Positions 1-6,132 of a DNA stretch of 20,000 nucleotides are shown in pieces. This DNA is from an uncultured virus (IMG/VR IMGVR_UViG_3300017746_000005). Its lineage: Duplodnaviria > Heunggongvirae > Uroviricota > Caudoviricetes. The notes beneath the pieces are model-generated. The model was given only the letters and a program-made list of their open reading frames with translations. It made no database searches and was not told the DNA's origin. Position numbers and translations under genes: made by a program. Location: the IMG/VR virus record IMGVR_UViG_3300017746_000005, positions 54,074-74,073 of that record, one strand, 5' to 3'. Within the stretch, counting starts at the first letter, position 1. Every line of letters starts with the position of its first letter.

Positions 1-1
1 T

Positions 2-274
2 CCACATATTCATTCTGGAGCTCAATGGAGTTTTGTAATTTATGTGGATGTTGAGGAATCTAAGACTGTTTTTCTTTCCCCAAGTAGACATAATCAAATG
101 AATCAATGGGGATATCTAGGTCATGCTTTTCCTATAGAGTATATGCCAAAAGTTTCTTCTGAAAATATTATAATTTTCCCGTCATTCATTGAACATTTTG
201 TTCCCCCTGGGAATGAAGGCATAACTATATCAGGTAACATTTATTATGATCAGCCTCCAGGAGGACCAGTATGA
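2..274 (+). CDS. Putative 2OG-Fe(II) oxygenase (TIGR02466-like), 5'-truncated by the window edge
   Basis: The frame of ORF 44..274 is open back to base 2 and reads PHIHSGAQWSFVIYVDV... (HxH iron-ligand motif), then IIFPSFIEHFV...ITISGN, the typical C-terminal strand motif. The GTG at 44 is therefore probably internal. Confidence 0.75.
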   Translation, partial: PHIHSGAQWSFVIYVDVEESKTVFLSPSRHNQMNQWGYLGHAFPIEYMPKVSSENIIIFPSFIEHFVPPGNEGITISGNIYYDQPPGGPV

Positions 275-1389
275 AACAAGTTGGACTTAATCTTTCCCAT
301 GATTCCTCACTCTGTATTGTCGATCAAGGAGAAACAGAGATATTCATTGAAGAAGAGAGATATTCCAGAATCAAACATGATGGAGACCCATTTCATGTAT
401 TGGACAAACATTTTAGGGGAATAGATTCTGAAGATTATTCCAATACATACAATCTTGGAATGACTGGACTTTTAGATGAGGATCCTAAAGGAGGAAACGC
501 TCTACAAATTGCTTCAGAGACAGTCAATAGAACACTCTCTAAGATACTAACTTATAAAGATTTTGATAAGTGGTGTGCTCATAGTCATAAGCACGCACAA
601 AATGTAATATATAACGAGCATCATCTTTTACATGCTTATTCTGGATTCTATAATTCTGGATTTGATGATGCAGCGATTGTAGTAGTTGATGCTATGGGAA
701 ATACACTAAGGAATAATGATAGATATGTAGAAGTTGCTACTACTTTCATTGGTGGTTATCCAAATATAATGGTTCCAATTGTTGGAATGTCTACACCAAC
801 TTACATGGCTTGTGATTCTGCAGAACATAAAGGTGGATGGAACTGCGGAATCGGTATGGCATATTCTGCGGTATCGTCTTATCTTGGTTTTGGTGGACTT
901 GGGGCTGGAAAAGTAATGGGTCTTGCTCCATACGGTAAAGAAGATCCCAATATTAAATCTTTCATTTTAGATGATGGATATACTGTAGACTCGAATTTAT
1001 TTTACAGAACCAGATTTGGTGCAAACTTTATTCCATATGATTATCTCCCTCCTCATGTAGAAGCAGTAAACATAGAAAAACATTTCCAAAAACTTGCAAA
1101 TCTTGCTTGGAGACTTCAAGAAGATTTTCAGACTCATATGTTATTTCTTCTCACCGATGCACTTGAAAGAACAAATATGCGAAATCTTGTTCTTACTGGT
1201 GGATGCGCTCTAAATTGTGTTGCAAATTATTGGTACTTAGACAAGTTACCAAAAGATGTCAAACTATATGTAGAACCTATTAGTAATGATGCTGGAGTTT
1301 CTTTGGGACTTGCAAAATATTTGTATTACACTGAAACTGAATCATACAAAAAACATCCTCTCAAAAATTTGTATTTAGGTCCAAAATGA
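271..1389 (+). CDS. Carbamoyltransferase (CmcH/NodU/TobZ family), N-terminal Kae1-like domain only, copy 1
   Basis: Motifs SHDSS, EEERYSRIKHD, EHHLLHAYSGF, VVVDAMG, GKVMGLAPYG, GGCALNCVAN, NDAGVSLG. It ends at YLGPK, the inter-domain linker of full-length enzymes. ATGA overlap with the upstream gene. Confidence 0.9.
   Translation: MKQVGLNLSHDSSLCIVDQGETEIFIEEERYSRIKHDGDPFHVLDKHFRGIDSEDYSNTYNLGMTGLLDEDPKGGNALQIASETVNRTLSKILTYKDFDKWCAHSHKHAQNVIYNEHHLLHAYSGFYNSGFDDAAIVVVDAMGNTLRNNDRYVEVATTFIGGYPNIMVPIVGMSTPTYMACDSAEHKGGWNCGIGMAYSAVSSYLGFGGLGAGKVMGLAPYGKEDPNIKSFILDDGYTVDSNLFYRTRFGANFIPYDYLPPHVEAVNIEKHFQKLANLAWRLQEDFQTHMLFLLTDALERTNMRNLVLTGGCALNCVANYWYLDKLPKDVKLYVEPISNDAGVSLGLAKYLYYTETESYKKHPLKNLYLGPK
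642..673 (+). repeat. 32-nt exact direct repeat shared by the two carbamoyltransferase paralogues (second copy 1769..1800)
   Basis: tggattctataattctggatttgatgatgcag occurs at 642..673 and 1769..1800 (offset 1127). Confidence 0.9.
886..963 (+). repeat. 78-nt near-identical direct repeat between the paralogues (second copy 2013..2090)
   Basis: Manual alignment gives 75/78 identity at offset 1127. The three differences change codons AAA>ATA, CCA>TCA and AAA>AGA. Confidence 0.85.
1102..1143 (+). repeat. 42-nt near-identical direct repeat between the paralogues (second copy 2226..2267)
   Basis: cttgcttggagacttca(a/g)gaagattttcagactcatatgtta, 41/42 identical. Confidence 0.85.
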
Positions 1390-2513
1390 AATTGAAAAAA
1401 CAAGTAGGATTTCACTTATCCCATAACTCCTCAGTATCAGTTCTTTCTGAAGATGGGGACATTGAACTTTTCCTGGAAGAAGAAAGATTGTCTAGATTAA
1501 AATATGATAACGATCCATTTCATGCATGTAACATGGTTCTTGGTGGACTTACCATGGATGAGATTGAAAAATATGAAGTAGCAACATCTGCATTAATATC
1601 TAAAGACAAGCTGGGAGTAAGTACATTAGATCGTAGTAGTGATATGTTAATAATGTATGTTTCTAAATCATTAAAACTTCTACCACATGAACAAAACTCT
1701 TTTAAGTATGAAATAGTCAAAGAAAAATTTGAAAAGTTTTTTGATCATCACTTATTTCATGCTTATTGTGGATTCTATAATTCTGGATTTGATGATGCAG
1801 TTGTAGTTGTGGTTGATGGTATGGGAAACTTCCTTACTCCTGCAGAAGATAGGCATGAGGTTGTTTCCATATTCGATGCATCTTATCCATGTAATATGAA
1901 TTCTTTAGGAGGGATGTCTACACCCTCTTATGATAGTTGTGATGAATCTGAACATAAAGGTGAGTGGACATGTGGAATTGGTATGGTGTACTCCGCAGTA
2001 TCCTCATATATGGGTTTTGGTGGACTTGGGGCTGGAATAGTAATGGGTCTTGCTTCATACGGTAAAGAAGATCCCAATATTAGATCTTTCCTTTCTGATG
2101 GATTTAATGTAGATTCAAATCTTTTTTATAGGTCTAAGTATGGATGTAATTTTATTCCATATGATTACTTACCTCATCATAGAGAAGCTGAAAATACTGA
2201 GAATCACTTTGAAAAATTAGCTAACCTTGCTTGGAGACTTCAGGAAGATTTTCAGACTCATATGTTAAAAATTTTATTGGACGCTCTTGCAATATCGAAA
2301 CGTAAAAATATTATTTTAACTGGTGGATGTGCATTAAACTGTTCTGCAAATTATTGGTATTTGGATAAGTTGCCAAAAGATGTTAAACTATATGTGGAAC
2401 CTATTAGTAGTGATGCTGGAATTAGTATTGGAGTATCTAAAGCTCAATATTATTCCAAAACTGGTTCCATGAAAAAATATCCACTTAAAAACTTATACTT
2501 AGGACCCGAATGA
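1386..2513 (+). CDS. Carbamoyltransferase (CmcH/NodU/TobZ family), N-terminal Kae1-like domain only, copy 2
   Basis: Motifs SHNSS, EEERLSRLKYD, DHHLFHAYCGF, VVVDGMG, GIVMGLASYG, GGCALNCSAN, SDAGISIG. Ends at YLGPE. Clear paralogue of 271..1389, with ATGA overlap. Confidence 0.9.
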   Translation: MKLKKQVGFHLSHNSSVSVLSEDGDIELFLEEERLSRLKYDNDPFHACNMVLGGLTMDEIEKYEVATSALISKDKLGVSTLDRSSDMLIMYVSKSLKLLPHEQNSFKYEIVKEKFEKFFDHHLFHAYCGFYNSGFDDAVVVVVDGMGNFLTPAEDRHEVVSIFDASYPCNMNSLGGMSTPSYDSCDESEHKGEWTCGIGMVYSAVSSYMGFGGLGAGIVMGLASYGKEDPNIRSFLSDGFNVDSNLFYRSKYGCNFIPYDYLPHHREAENTENHFEKLANLAWRLQEDFQTHMLKILLDALAISKRKNIILTGGCALNCSANYWYLDKLPKDVKLYVEPISSDAGISIGVSKAQYYSKTGSMKKYPLKNLYLGPE

Positions 2514-2836
2514 GATATAATGTAGATATAGACGGCACTATCTGTATTCCTGGAAAAGGAGAAGGCAGATATACTGAAGCTGTACCTATCCCAGAAAGGA
2601 TCTCTAAAATAAATGATCTATATATTAAAGGACATCAGATAATCTACCATACCGCTAGAGGTATGGGTACATTTAATAATGATCGAGAACAAGCTAAGGA
2701 AAAGTATTACGACTTCACTCACAAACAACTGTTAGAATGGGGATGTATGTTTCACGATCTTTTCTTAGGAAAACCTTCAGCTGACTATTACATTGACGAC
2801 AAGGGAGTAAGTGCCGATGAATTCTTCGATACCTAG
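2510..2836 (+). CDS. Small capless HAD-superfamily phosphatase (capsule/sugar biosynthesis-associated type)
   Basis: HAD motif I DIDGT, motif II HTARG, motif III GKP, motif IV YIDDK. 108 aa. Confidence 0.85.
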   Translation: MRYNVDIDGTICIPGKGEGRYTEAVPIPERISKINDLYIKGHQIIYHTARGMGTFNNDREQAKEKYYDFTHKQLLEWGCMFHDLFLGKPSADYYIDDKGVSADEFFDT

Positions 2837-3191
2837 AGCAGCAGAACCAATTAAGTTCGTGTCCAAAGGATGGGGATATGAAAAATGGATAGTTAACTCA
2901 GAACAATATTGTGGCAAACTCCTTTTCATTGCAAAAGGAAAACAATGTTCTTGGCACTTTCATAAAAAGAAAGACGAAGTTTTCTATGTTCAAAGTGGAA
3001 AAATTAAAATCTACTATGGGTGGGATGACAATATTGAAGTCGCTAATGTATCTGTACTAGAAACTGGAGATAAGTTTCATGTTCCTATTGGAATGAAACA
3101 TAGAATGTATGGTCTTTCCGATACTGAATTATTTGAATTTAGTACAGAACATTTTGATGAAGATAGTAATAGAATTGAATCTGGAGATTGA
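2817..3191 (+). CDS. Cupin-domain protein, mannose-6-phosphate isomerase-like / sugar isomerase
   Basis: KGWGYEKWI...YCGKLL...CSWHFHKKKDEVFYVQSG...GMKHRM...FEFST cupin motifs. ATG 2817 is preferred over GTG 2811 because GGAG at 2804-2807 gives better RBS spacing. Confidence 0.8.
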   Translation: MNSSIPRAAEPIKFVSKGWGYEKWIVNSEQYCGKLLFIAKGKQCSWHFHKKKDEVFYVQSGKIKIYYGWDDNIEVANVSVLETGDKFHVPIGMKHRMYGLSDTELFEFSTEHFDEDSNRIESGD

Positions 3192-3796
3192 TGAGAGCTG
3201 AAAAAATAACAGATCTAATTGTGGTTTTGAAAAATCACATCCCAGACAAAACCTGTGATGAAATATTGGAATGGTTTAAATCGAACAAACATCTTCAAAG
3301 TGATGGGTGCGTTTATAGCACAAAAAACGGAAAAAACATTGGACCTAGTGTTAAAAAAGATTTTAAAAATGCTATTCAGACTCTAGTCCCTCCAGAAGCA
3401 CCTATCTCAGACAAGATGACAGAGATCACTATGTCTGCTTTTAGGGAAGCAGGTTCTAGATATCCAGTTCCAGAAGATAGCATGACTCTAAATGATTATT
3501 GCGTTAGGGTATATCCCAAGAACGAAGGAATATTTAAGACTCATGTGGACCAACATGCATTTGGTACAGTAAGTAGAATATTTGCTTGCATTATGTATCT
3601 CAATGATGTTGAGGAAGGTGGAGAAACAGAATTTCCAGATTGGAATATAGCAGTAAGACCAGAGAAGGGGAAAGTACTATTATTTCCATGCAATTATTTG
3701 TTCAAACATAAAGGAAATGCTCCCATTTCCGAAGAAAAATATATCGCTACAAATTTTATTAACTTTATGGTGCAAGATATTCCTCTAACGTCTTGA
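3191..3796 (+). CDS. 2OG-Fe(II) oxygenase, prolyl 4-hydroxylase-like
   Basis: HVD iron motif (FKTHVDQ), YLNDVEEGGETEFP, GKVLLFP...FKHKG...KYI. ATG 3191 overlaps the cupin stop (TGATG). Confidence 0.9.
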   Translation: MRAEKITDLIVVLKNHIPDKTCDEILEWFKSNKHLQSDGCVYSTKNGKNIGPSVKKDFKNAIQTLVPPEAPISDKMTEITMSAFREAGSRYPVPEDSMTLNDYCVRVYPKNEGIFKTHVDQHAFGTVSRIFACIMYLNDVEEGGETEFPDWNIAVRPEKGKVLLFPCNYLFKHKGNAPISEEKYIATNFINFMVQDIPLTS

Positions 3797-4568
3797 GTCT
3801 ATAGTTTAACCATTTCATATCTGCACAGGTATAATCTTGATACTTACCTTTTAGGTGATCTGGGAAAGGAATCATTTCGATTTCTCCCCCTTCTTTTTTA
3901 GCAACTAACTCTGCAACTCTCTGGAATGACATTGGTTTGCCAGTTCCAATATCATAGATTCCACTGGGAGCGTCATTATTCATGACAATATTGACTATAT
4001 CATCTACACATACAAAGTCCCTATAAAAATTATCCGATCCTTCAAACAATTTAAGTTTCCCAGTCTCTTTGATCTGTTTGGTAAACTTTGAGACTGGACT
4101 TGCTTGGTCTCCCTTATGATCTTCTCCAGTTCCGTATACATTAAAATATCTAAATCCTTGGATACTTTCAAACCGATCTATATTGTCCAATACGTAATAA
4201 TCTATGATTAGTTTTGAAATTGCATATTGATTCAGTGGATTGATCTTCCTACATTCTCTTGTTTGATTACCATACACAGATGCCGAGGATGCATACTTTA
4301 TAGGAATTTTATGTTCAATTGCATGTGAAAATAGGTGAGCAGTAAAAGATTGATTGTAATGTGCAATCTTTACCCAGTTTTTTTCTGTTGTAGATGAGAT
4401 TGCTCCATTATGAATTATTAAGTCTACATTTTCCCATCCATTAAATTTGGACAGAAATTTCCATGCGTTATCGACATCAATTCCAATAACATCATGTTCT
4501 CCTTCAGTTTCAAAATAGTTTTGAAAGTGAGATCCAATAAACCCTTTATATCCAGTAATTAAAATCAT
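3765..4568 (-). CDS. hldD: ADP-L-glycero-D-manno-heptose 6-epimerase-like NAD(P)-dependent epimerase (HldD/RfaD/GmhD)
   Basis: TGYKGFIGS Rossmann motif, HNGAISSTTE, YASSASVYG, PLNQYAISK (YxxxK), GFRYFNVYG...HKG..AS, RDFVCVDD and GKYQDYTCAD, all matching HldD-type signatures. Confidence 0.85.
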   Translation of the reverse strand: MILITGYKGFIGSHFQNYFETEGEHDVIGIDVDNAWKFLSKFNGWENVDLIIHNGAISSTTEKNWVKIAHYNQSFTAHLFSHAIEHKIPIKYASSASVYGNQTRECRKINPLNQYAISKLIIDYYVLDNIDRFESIQGFRYFNVYGTGEDHKGDQASPVSKFTKQIKETGKLKLFEGSDNFYRDFVCVDDIVNIVMNNDAPSGIYDIGTGKPMSFQRVAELVAKKEGGEIEMIPFPDHLKGKYQDYTCADMKWLNYRLKTLEEYLAP

Positions 4569-5275
4569 CAGTATACTATCGTTGGAATAGGTAGAAATAT
4601 TGATTGAGCGAGTCTATACACCTGTTGATCAAAGTGACCTGGATGTTGATATACACCATGAAGAAAATTATCTGGATATACAATCAATCTATTGTATTTC
4701 ATTTCTGCTAAGTGAACAAGTTCCCAAGGACCAACACTATCTCTTACGGTGTCCTCTTTCCAGATTCCAGATTGGTATACATCAACACAACTCATTCCCT
4801 TATAAGTATAAAATCCAGTGCCACCATGACATTCTTCTGGCGTGTTTAAATAAATTACACCTGCCCAACCCCTAACTAAATTTTTACTATCTATAGGAGA
4901 ATCTACGTGTGGAATAAGTGCTTGATCTGATGCAGTTACATTTACCGAGAATGTAAGTTGTTTGCATCCACAGATAAATCGTTCTTCTTCCTCTTTTGTC
5001 AATCCATAAACTGATTTGGCTATGTCAGTCCAGATTGGAACTAAATGATCAAGATCAAAATTTGCACTAACTCTACCACCTGGCACTCCTCCACAAATTC
5101 TTCTATTTAAAGTTGGAGGGATTCTTAGAGCCAAATCTCTAACTTGATCGGGATTTTTATAAAAATTATCGATGTATACGATTGGTTTTTCTTCCCATCC
5201 CATTAACTCTACTCTTGCATCCAATTCATCATTGACTGCAAACGTTTCGATTTCATTTATTAAGTACTTTTCCAT
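4568..5275 (-). CDS. DUF6445-like protein, probable 2OG-Fe(II) oxygenase fold
   Basis: IDNFYKNPDQVR...PHVD...GVIYLN...GGTGFY...KYNRLIVYP..FLHG...RLAQ (HxD...H triad). Its stop overlaps the hldD start (TGATG on the minus strand). Confidence 0.7.
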   Translation of the reverse strand: MEKYLINEIETFAVNDELDARVELMGWEEKPIVYIDNFYKNPDQVRDLALRIPPTLNRRICGGVPGGRVSANFDLDHLVPIWTDIAKSVYGLTKEEEERFICGCKQLTFSVNVTASDQALIPHVDSPIDSKNLVRGWAGVIYLNTPEECHGGTGFYTYKGMSCVDVYQSGIWKEDTVRDSVGPWELVHLAEMKYNRLIVYPDNFLHGVYQHPGHFDQQVYRLAQSIFLPIPTIVY

Positions 5276-5279
5276 GAGA

Positions 5280-5287
5280 TATAAATA
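5280..5287 (+). promoter_or_regulatory. T4-type late promoter (gp55-dependent) upstream of g13
   Basis: Perfect TATAAATA in the 38-nt divergent intergenic region. Confidence 0.8.
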
Positions 5288-5313
5288 TGTTGAGAACCCT
5301 ATGATTATTAGGA

Positions 5314-6132
5314 ATGGCTAAGCCCTCCAGTAGAGAAGCATTGAAGCAGTATTGCCTCAGGAAACTCGGAAAGCCAGTATTGGAAGTCAATGTCGATGAT
5401 GATCAAATCGAAGACTTGATAGACGATGCACTCCAATTATATCATGAAAGACATGGTGAGGGAATAGATAGAGTATTTTTAAAACATAAGTTGACCGAGG
5501 CAGAAAGAACTGCTATGGTTGGAATTGCTCAAACAACAACTGTTACTGATACTTTTGGCGGGATTTCTTCTGCAGATTATACAGAACAAGCTAACTACCT
5601 TCCATTACCAGACACTATTATTGGAGTCAATAAGATATTTAAAATGGACTCATCCACCTTATCGGCGGGGATGTTCAATATAAAATATCAACTCTTCCTT
5701 AATGATTTATACTACTACGGCGCAATAGATTTATTGAACTATAGTCAAACAAAATCATACTTGGAGACTATAGATTTTCTTCTTAATCCAGAAGTCCAAA
5801 TAAGATTTAACAAAAAGAACAGTAGATTATACATGGATATAAATCTAAAAGAACTCACAGAAGATCATTTTCTAATATTAGATTGTTATAGAGTTGTAGA
5901 TCCAGAAAGTGAAACTGCTGTATATAATGATCTATGGATTAAGAGGTATACAACATCTCTAATTAAAAGACAATGGGGACAAAACCTAATTAAGTTCCAA
6001 GGAGTTAAGCTTCCTGGTGGACTTGAGATGAACGGTAGACAACTATTTGATGACGCTCAACGAGAATTAGAAGATCATGAACAAAAGTTGATAACTGAAT
6101 ATGCCATGCCACCCCTAGATATGATAGGATAA
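5314..6132 (+). CDS. g13: Neck protein gp13 (head-tail adaptor)
   Basis: MAKPSSRE.LKQYCLRKLGKPVLEVNVDDDQIEDLIDDALQ...KRQWGQNLIKFQGVKLPGG..MNG...PPLDMIG, plus synteny. Confidence 0.95.
   Translation: MAKPSSREALKQYCLRKLGKPVLEVNVDDDQIEDLIDDALQLYHERHGEGIDRVFLKHKLTEAERTAMVGIAQTTTVTDTFGGISSADYTEQANYLPLPDTIIGVNKIFKMDSSTLSAGMFNIKYQLFLNDLYYYGAIDLLNYSQTKSYLETIDFLLNPEVQIRFNKKNSRLYMDINLKELTEDHFLILDCYRVVDPESETAVYNDLWIKRYTTSLIKRQWGQNLIKFQGVKLPGGLEMNGRQLFDDAQRELEDHEQKLITEYAMPPLDMIG

Follow-up and report, generated by a model that had tools for sequence, protein, structure and literature searches.

How could a carbamoyltransferase act on its substrate if it lacks the domain that prepares the carbamoyl group? 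The question is raised by two tandem genes, ORF1 and ORF2, at the beginning of the stretch of DNA analysed here (the window), which comprises the last 20 kb of the 74-kb IMG/VR contig G000 of a T4-like marine cyanophage. In class III carbamoyltransferases, the family of TobZ, NodU and CmcH, a YrdC-like domain uses carbamoyl phosphate and ATP to form carbamoyl-adenylate (carbamoyl-AMP), which moves ≈ 20 Å to the Kae1-like site, where the carbamoyl group is transferred to a hydroxyl (PMC6022934). All characterised members are single polypeptides containing both the Kae1-like and the YrdC-like domain (PMC9633730). The two genes of the window encode the Kae1-like, N-terminal domain only and will be called N-only. 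The original prediction, made from the sequence of the window, had seen in them a maintained split system, in which transfer subunits, each supposedly specific for its own acceptor, share an activating subunit supplied in trans. The answer reached here, considered rather probable, sees in ORF1 and ORF2 active transferases which receive carbamoyl-AMP from the YrdC-like domain of a full-length neighbour, FL-A, and probably tailor a heptose.

Two genes ending at a domain border

The Pfam content of ORF1 and ORF2 consists of Carbam_trans_N (PF02543) alone, with both proteins passing the 24-bit cut-off; neither the Pfam search for Carbam_trans_C (PF16861) nor a custom hidden Markov model (HMM) of the C-domain gave a match in their frames, and NCBIfam provided no equivalog for either, ORF1 having a match to a NodU fragment at E 6e-4. 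In PHROGs, the two proteins span only positions 1-333/334 of phrog_1601, which has 528 positions, and in the alignment with FL-A both end precisely at the border between the N- and the C-domain, with LYLGP facing LYTGFEY... in FL-A (termini NLYLGPK in ORF1 and NLYLGPE in ORF2). ATGA overlaps couple the reading frames, at 271-274 between the gene of a 2-oxoglutarate (2OG) oxygenase and ORF1, at 1386-1389 between ORF1 and ORF2, and at 2510-2513 between ORF2 and the gene of a HAD-type phosphatase. Two proteins of the N-only type, with the same end and ATGA-coupled genes, had been described from the sequence at the outset, and Pfam, PHROGs and the alignment with FL-A agree with this description. 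The place of the stop is not uniform throughout the clade to which they belong, S-SSM7-type members ending ≈ 17 profile positions earlier.

The stops are real. Assemblies from two other studies, which differ from the window by 0-2 substitutions per contig, cover positions 774-1798 with no and 1769-2900 with one difference (X11, 2023, independent run), and positions 644-1447 with no and 1771-2900 with two differences (X12, 2025, independent run). These contigs bridge both stop/start junctions, and no indels are listed, so that an assembly error can be ruled out. The same stops occur in the IMG/VR contigs L009-L012 and L014 and in the Synechococcus phage Sf-FS3, the isolate nearest to positions 1-6000 of the window (85% identity over 84%). 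A marine metatranscriptome (X17) contributed three error-free contigs of 151-173 nt (window 1340-1612 and 2628-2800), which lie on the ORF1/ORF2 junction and within the HAD gene; as such libraries can contain DNA, they hint at expression weakly at best.

The active site has been kept. In an alignment of 51 N-only proteins (≈ 45% identity), His 13, His 121, His 122, His 125, Asp 144 and Asp 343 are invariant, and of the 32 columns conserved to at least 90% in 91 full-length N-domains, 30 show the same conservation in the N-only clade and the remaining two reach 86%. For GdmN, His 27 has been assigned as the catalytic base, and His 133, His 137, Asp 156 and Asp 333 as the Fe ligands (PMC9633730). 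The invariant residues of the N-only proteins correspond to this base and these ligands and, in a profile alignment, to the motifs HHLAH, VDGQG and SDIG of TobZ; the ORF2 profile matched TobZ at E 1.1e-25, covering residues 20-353 of 576 only. The predicted structure of ORF2 (mean predicted local distance difference test score, pLDDT, 90.3) retrieved TobZ, GdmN, NovN and VtdB as the top Foldseek matches (E 1e-15 to 5e-12), with TsaD/Kae1 as a second tier (E 1e-9 to 1e-8), and no TsaD/Kae1 family match was found for either ORF at E ≤ 0.01 in Pfam or NCBIfam. Along these lines, ORF1 and ORF2 resemble TobZ, GdmN, NovN, VtdB, NodU and CmcH in their Kae1-like fold, the catalytic histidine and the set of His, His, Asp and Asp metal ligands, whereas they end at the domain border, beyond which those enzymes continue with the fused YrdC-like domain.

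The ratio of nonsynonymous to synonymous substitution rates (dN/dS) amounts to 0.107 for ORF1, compared with its orthologue in L011, and for ORF2 to 0.16-0.26 where the orthologue is moderately diverged and to 0.39-0.44 in comparisons with the Sf-FS3 lineage; the corresponding range for FL-A is 0.05-0.14. Purifying selection thus acts on the short genes, which nevertheless evolve faster than their FL-A partner. These ratios for ORF1 and ORF2 stay away from the value near 1 of neutrally evolving genes, and the orthologues are likewise short. The early suggestion of a maintained architecture rather than decay agrees with an old and diversified clade, invariant catalytic residues and dN/dS well below 1.

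The full-length neighbour and the descent of the short genes

A search of the whole contig for Carbam_trans_C gave a single match, inside FL-A, which precedes ORF1 by 1,711 nt in the same gene string and on the same strand. The three genes in the interval encode an HldE-domain-II-like adenylyltransferase, an HldE-domain-I-like kinase and the 2OG oxygenase; the N-domains of G000 are also three, those of FL-A, ORF1 and ORF2. The absence of a YrdC-like domain, as originally proposed, is correct for ORF1 and ORF2 themselves and incorrect for the genome, in which FL-A carries one only 1.7 kb upstream. The Carbam_trans_C search found no stand-alone C-only gene in the 74-kb contig, the rest of the genome lying outside it, and the PF01300 HMM found no stand-alone Sua5/YrdC gene there, a faint match (E 0.022, 9.7 bits) falling within the C-domain of FL-A. 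In Sf-FS3 and S-SSM7 the layout consists of a full-length gene, one to three further genes and a single N-only copy. In these two complete genomes all C-domains reside in open frames of at least 508 aa, so that neither has a stand-alone C gene; the separate C-domain gene that had been considered as the activator was found neither here nor in the contig.

For a broader view, every carbamoyltransferase frame in G000, in four isolate records and in loci taken from IMG/VR (88) and from bacterial genomes (78) was classed with custom N- and C-domain HMMs. The closed genes of the phage set comprise 94 full-length, 35 N-only and 6 C-only genes, and the 120 best database relatives of ORF2 divide into 99 proteins of 218-389 aa that have PF02543 only and 21 full-length ones. 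Closed N-only genes occur in 31 phage loci (G000, the four isolate records and 26 IMG/VR contigs), of which 28 also contain a C-domain, be it as part of a full-length gene or as a C-only gene, and the three exceptions, L022, L038 and L042, offer only 2,735, 66 and 1,478 nt of upstream sequence. The proposed survey of related phages for such co-occurrence therefore yielded paired genes wherever the flank was long enough. The C-bearing gene is nearly always the nearest one upstream on the same strand, with gaps of -60 to 3,774 nt, and in seven cases the start of the N-only gene overlaps the full-length stop. The count overstates the independence of the loci, because many of them are close relatives.

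The bacterial-genome loci contain 79 closed full-length genes, and closed N-only genes on one 13-kb contig only, which belongs to a metagenome-assembled genome (MAG) named 'Flavobacteriales TMED113' (L097) and is also the only close relative (44%) among the 78 loci; the other bacterial-genome relatives reach at most 32% and are full-length, save two cut by contig ends. A bacterial source of the N-only form was thus not found among these loci. The TMED113 contig shows the phage arrangement, with a homologue of X396 (a protein encoded next to FL-A and described below), a full-length gene broken into frames of 264 aa and 392 aa, and an N-only gene; it probably comes from a phage and entered the bacterial MAG through a binning error.

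The descent of the short genes was followed in an N-domain tree (IQ-TREE quick, LG+G4), for which 201 rows were reduced to 170 by removal of near-duplicates and then to 121, namely all 107 phage rows plus an outgroup formed by the first 14 of the 63 bacterial rows. ORF1, ORF2, the Sf-FS3 protein and the S-SSM7 protein 'nol' fall into a 22-row clade that is wholly N-only and has long internal branches (support of 89 in the Shimodaira-Hasegawa-like approximate likelihood ratio test, SH-aLRT). Its sister group consists of seven full-length proteins, all encoded by the second gene in a tandem of full-length genes, and two N-only proteins, and the clade and its sister group are joined with an SH-aLRT of 99. 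FL-A is found in a separate 19-row clade (SH-aLRT 99) of upstream partners from the same loci. According to this topology, the ancestor encoded two complete enzymes in tandem, and the downstream copy lost its C-domain; the two N-only genes of the sister group represent an independent C-domain loss.

Altogether the tree contains four separate N-only lineages, all of them with a C-bearing neighbour. Two of these, further to the losses just mentioned, are true gene fissions in which a C-only gene (181-198 aa) directly precedes the N-only gene, as found in S-RIM44 (L020 3422-5043), S-SCSM1 (L021 8183-11765), L016 (7607-9321) and L017 (9381-11113); the order is C then N in S-RIM44 and C-N-C-N in S-SCSM1. 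Stand-alone C-domain genes, which the original prediction had postulated as a form, hence exist in related cyanophages, and the separate C-only and N-only pairs of these four loci suggest that function in trans is viable in the family. S-RIM44 (gp035/gp034) and S-SCSM1 (gp178-gp175) are T4-like cyanophages that share with the window stand-alone N genes (337-410 aa) adjoining a C-bearing gene. They differ in having a dedicated C gene (181-189 aa) directly upstream, in their location beside thyX/td, and in belonging to other N-only lineages; no such adjacent C-domain gene is present in the 74-kb contig, where the C-domain of FL-A is the only one. The C-then-N order of the fission pairs matches the YrdC-then-Kae1 order of HypF. 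The opposite order is seen in L018 (489-2073), with an N-only frame of 350 aa followed by a C-only frame of 184 aa in a different reading frame and with a 17-nt overlap; here the gene has either been split at the domain border or is a full-length one with a frameshift.

Within the N-only clade, orthologues of ORF2 are found in L009-L012, L014 and Sf-FS3, with S-SSM7 'nol' in the same clade, whereas among the fetched loci ORF1 has an orthologue only in L011 (92% identity). ORF1 branches outside the group of ORF2 and Sf-FS3, as its sister. The two proteins of the window share 58% identity, and with a saturated dS of 1.08 their duplication is therefore old. The number of short copies varies among near relatives with 97-98% identical FL-A proteins, being one in L009, L010 and L012 and two in G000 and L011.

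The sugar island and its putative acceptor

The carbamoyltransferase genes are part of a sugar island placed between tail-fibre genes and the neck gene gp13 (Table 1), whose counterpart is labelled neck protein in the records of Sf-FS3 and S-SSM7. On the fibre side lie the genes of a 1,477-aa fibre protein containing CBM_5_12, of three glycine-rich paralogues and of a 255-aa fibre-assembly-like protein. The paralogues (260-266 aa) stand in tandem between the 1,477-aa fibre gene and the island, and are possible fibre-associated acceptor proteins.

Table 1. Features of the window and of the adjoining part of the island; plain numbers refer to the window, prefixed ones to the record named.
Feature	Coordinates	Strand	Matches
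2OG-Fe(II) oxygenase, 3' end	2..274	+	PF13759 E 8e-06; phrog_81 E 5.5e-19
ORF1, N-only (Kae1-like) carbamoyltransferase, 372 aa, extra copy	271..1389	+	PF02543 E 1.8e-23
ORF2, N-only (Kae1-like) carbamoyltransferase, 375 aa, widely conserved copy	1386..2513	+	PF02543 E 4.4e-16
HAD-type sugar phosphatase, 108 aa	2510..2836	+	TIGR01689 E 8.7e-08 (sub-cut-off); phrog_1238 E 7.3e-29
Cupin protein, 126 aa	2811..3191	+	Cupin_2 E 8.2e-09; phrog_7851 E 1.4e-58
Prolyl-4-hydroxylase-type 2OG-Fe(II) oxygenase, 202 aa	3188..3796	+	PF13640 E 1.8e-11; phrog_61
HldD-like ADP-glyceromanno-heptose 6-epimerase, 267 aa	3765..4568	-	TIGR02197 E 2.5e-67; Epimerase PF01370
DUF6445 protein (2OG-oxygenase-like), 235 aa	4568..5275	-	PF20043 E 2.1e-13
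gp13 neck / head-tail adaptor, downstream edge of sugar island	5314..6132	+	phrog_211 E 3.9e-46
FL-A, N+C carbamoyltransferase, 598 aa (outside window)	G000:C1:50836-52632	+	PF16861 E 5.8e-64
X396, 396-aa GT9-like protein, directly upstream of FL-A	L175:13637-14824 (G000:C1:49636-50823)		phrog_8954
Three tandem glycine-rich paralogues	L175:9589-12009		phrog_4205; Gly_rich_2
Oxygenases of the island	L175:12944-13585; L001:3195-window 274; window 3188-3796; window 4568-5275 (-)

The island itself encodes the HldE-like kinase and adenylyltransferase, the HAD phosphatase, the cupin, the HldD-like epimerase and several oxygenases of the 2OG and prolyl-4-hydroxylase (P4H) types. The HldD-like protein scored 227 bits against TIGR02197, under the cut-off of 274.6 bits. 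The HAD protein likewise remained under the curated cut-off of TIGR01689, a capsule biosynthesis phosphatase, and is likely to replace GmhB in the heptose pathway; for the cupin, a role as sugar isomerase or epimerase is possible. Four oxygenases of the 2OG-Fe(II), prolyl-4-hydroxylase or DUF6445 type occur within ≈ 11 kb of the island, the one 5' of ORF1 beginning outside the window (L001:3195), and they might hydroxylate the sugar or a protein acceptor.

The transfer step may be provided by X396. The predicted structure of this protein is confident over residues 9-330 and superimposes on members of glycosyltransferase family GT9 with Z 22.6 (PDB 3tov), 20.3 (1psw, WaaF), 19.8 (4rap, TibC) and 18.6 (2h1h, WaaC), the GT9 matches covering overall Z 18.3-22.6 at a root-mean-square deviation of 3.6-4.1 over 254-280 residues, while other GT-B families do not exceed Z 12. 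The assignment comes from fold comparison only, since no Pfam family, Glyco_transf_9 included, matched at E ≤ 0.01, and the X396 profile returned nothing below E 0.04 from the PDB sequences. A homologue of X396 lies directly 5' of the A-type full-length carbamoyltransferase in 48 loci, and the protein is, judged by its model, a candidate phage GT9 heptosyltransferase. Given this GT9-like fold and the gene content of the island, the system therefore looks like ADP-heptose synthesis followed by heptosyl transfer and multiple O-carbamoylations, with a virion protein or a host glycan as the possible target.

Two copies of the T4-type late-promoter motif TATAAATA are present on the plus strand of G000 48001-60500, before the gene of the 255-aa fibre-assembly-like protein and at window position 5280, 34 nt before gp13. 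The count is not evidence, because for this base composition roughly 1.5 sites per strand are expected by chance; the placement alone is suggestive.

The genes as such are already known, being annotated in isolates, with S-SSM7 'nol' dating from 2010. S-SSM7 'nol' (SSSM7_123) and SfFS3_107, labelled 'carbamoyltransferase domain-containing protein', belong to the same N-only clade as orthologue or paralogue of the window copies and occupy the same island, flanked by fibre and neck genes, the two isolates having one short copy and the phage of the window two. Sullivan et al. 2010 listed these clusters as cyanophage 'LPS genes' (lipopolysaccharide genes) of unknown function, and the accessible part of that account contains no mention of the missing C-domain (PMC3037559). 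In the literature searched, which included few subscription journals, no description was found of N-only or split class III carbamoyltransferases, nor of a phage-encoded heptosyltransferase island.

Supply of the carbamoyl group and competing readings

In this context one should recall the biosynthesis of N6-threonylcarbamoyladenosine (t6A), where TsaC/Sua5 and TsaD/Kae1/Qri7 follow the same two-protein logic of a YrdC-type enzyme that makes the adenylate and a Kae1-type metalloenzyme that uses it; YgjD-YeaZ-YjeE and Qri7 transfer from supplied threonylcarbamoyl-AMP (TC-AMP), the two activities being on separate proteins (PMC3814370). The t6A system differs in its sequence family, in its donor TC-AMP, the presumed donor of ORF1 and ORF2 being carbamoyl-AMP, and in that its YrdC-type component is a separate protein, whereas the YrdC-like part of the phage system has remained attached to a working paralogue, FL-A. 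By this analogy, ORF1 and ORF2 would be intact class III transferases minus the domain that makes carbamoyl-AMP. The intermediate would be made in trans, most likely by the YrdC-like domain of FL-A, and would reach them by release and diffusion or by transient contact, much as TsaC/Sua5 feeds TsaD/Kae1. FL-A, ORF1 and ORF2 would then carbamoylate different hydroxyls of a heptose that is made and transferred by products of the surrounding phage genes. The most economical mechanism is one in which another protein provides the activated donor in trans. The split system with activation in trans, as first envisaged, is favoured in so far as the short form is maintained and a supply in trans is plausible; its activator, however, is likely to be FL-A and not a separate subunit.

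Several observations speak against this reading or limit it. The intermediate of TobZ and HypF has been described as channelled between the fused domains (PMC6022934, PMC3814370), and supply in trans presupposes that a full-length enzyme would release carbamoyl-AMP. Carbamoyl transfer by N-only members is an activity predicted from conserved residues, and heptose is the acceptor of ORF1, ORF2 and FL-A by inference from the island, all of whose NCBIfam pathway matches are under the curated cut-offs. By dN/dS, ORF2 evolves 3-8 times faster than FL-A, and in one very close pair, with a dS of only 0.03, the ratio rises to 0.67. The linkage to a C-bearing gene could be inherited synteny and not functional dependence, only four independent origins being countable. 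G000 represents a genome fragment with a completeness of ≈ 32% (CheckV), and Sf-FS3 and S-SSM7 contain one and two further C-bearing frames (508-529 aa), respectively, far from the island, so that FL-A is not the sole possible donor. Prediction of a complex of FL-A and ORF2, run without controls, gave scores of 0.53, 0.29 and 0.00, the mark being 0.32, and speaks neither for nor against binding.

A more far-reaching version of the same idea has somewhat less than an even chance. Here the adenylating domain kept in FL-A would feed several stand-alone Kae1-like transferases, whose own, redundant activating domain would have been shed or split off on at least four separate occasions in phages. 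Without the C-domain over the active-site chamber, the N-only enzymes might accommodate a bulky substrate such as a heptosylated tail-fibre protein, as Kae1 does tRNA.

The first alternative concerns the donor, which might come from outside the phage C-domains, be it an adenylate from host TsaC/Sua5, carbamoyl phosphate as such, or ATP in another chemistry of the ASKHA type. The Kae1-like fold binds nucleotides by itself, as the fold matches illustrate, and the lack of a stand-alone YrdC gene in a contig that covers about one third of the genome would fit a host enzyme. Such a donor predicts N-only genes without a phage C-domain, which were seen in none of the 28 loci with enough flank; all four independent N-only lineages have kept a C-bearing neighbour, and the residues common to the enzymes that use carbamoyl-AMP are unchanged. 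The host enzyme with its different adenylate, one of the two activators initially suggested, gained no supporting data, and neither it nor a stand-alone C gene is needed, because the contig encodes a C-domain in FL-A and the pairing is kept in 28 of 31 loci. A donor of this kind is considered unlikely.

In a second alternative, the N-only proteins would be non-catalytic partners of FL-A that dimerise with it and alter its stability or choice of acceptor, as TsaB/YeaZ serves TsaD. The tight pairing with the FL-A type, with stop/start overlap in seven genes, would suit a partner protein, as would the faster evolution of the short copies and the presence of TsaD-TsaB heterodimers among the fold matches of ORF2. 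TsaB has lost the counterparts of the catalytic and metal-binding residues. In the short proteins, by contrast, the catalytic histidine and the four metal ligands are invariant (51 proteins) and 30 of 32 core columns are kept, and a scaffold needs neither; a non-catalytic role is accordingly judged improbable.

In a third alternative, phage DNA or a nucleotide takes the place of the sugar as acceptor, for which there is a precedent: a full-length phage class III enzyme of 63 kDa, found by MetaGPA, converts 5-hydroxymethylcytosine in DNA to 5-carbamoyloxymethylcytosine (PMC8670742). The split C and N pairs of S-RIM44 and S-SCSM1 follow adjoining thymidylate-synthase genes (thyX/td), which would be in keeping with such a substrate. 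The MetaGPA enzyme is paired with a thymidylate-synthase homologue, and the pairing of carbamoyltransferase and thymidylate synthase marked the modified contigs (PMC8670742); in the window the genes are N-only and accompanied by heptose genes, and the 74-kb contig, itself a fragment, has no match to Thymidylat_synt (PF00303). With an island composed of ADP-heptose pathway genes and a GT9-like transferase, DNA as the acceptor is very unlikely. That the short ORFs are decaying remnants or assembly artefacts, as the missing domain and the absence of ORF1 from the close relatives L009, L010 and L012 might suggest, has a negligible probability in view of the stops reproduced without indels in independent assemblies, the new gene start at each of these stops, and a 22-row N-only clade with long internal branches, dN/dS of 0.11-0.44 and an invariant active site.

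If ORF1 and ORF2 are indeed supplied by FL-A, the existence of a conserved and selected family of subunits for transfer alone would mean that proteins can share carbamoyl-AMP, which would tie antibiotic-tailoring enzymes mechanistically to the ancient TsaC/TsaD system and suggest a modular biocatalysis with one activator and many transferases. Given the TsaC/TsaD precedent, activation in trans is an incremental idea; should one adenylating domain serve several transferases on a macromolecule, these would be the first enzymes of class III for which action in trans and on such a substrate is demonstrated. For the phages themselves, of which S-SSM7 and Sf-FS3 are available as isolates, the cyanophage 'LPS genes' look like a full kit for the synthesis, transfer and carbamoylation of heptose, placed among the virion genes of abundant ocean phages.

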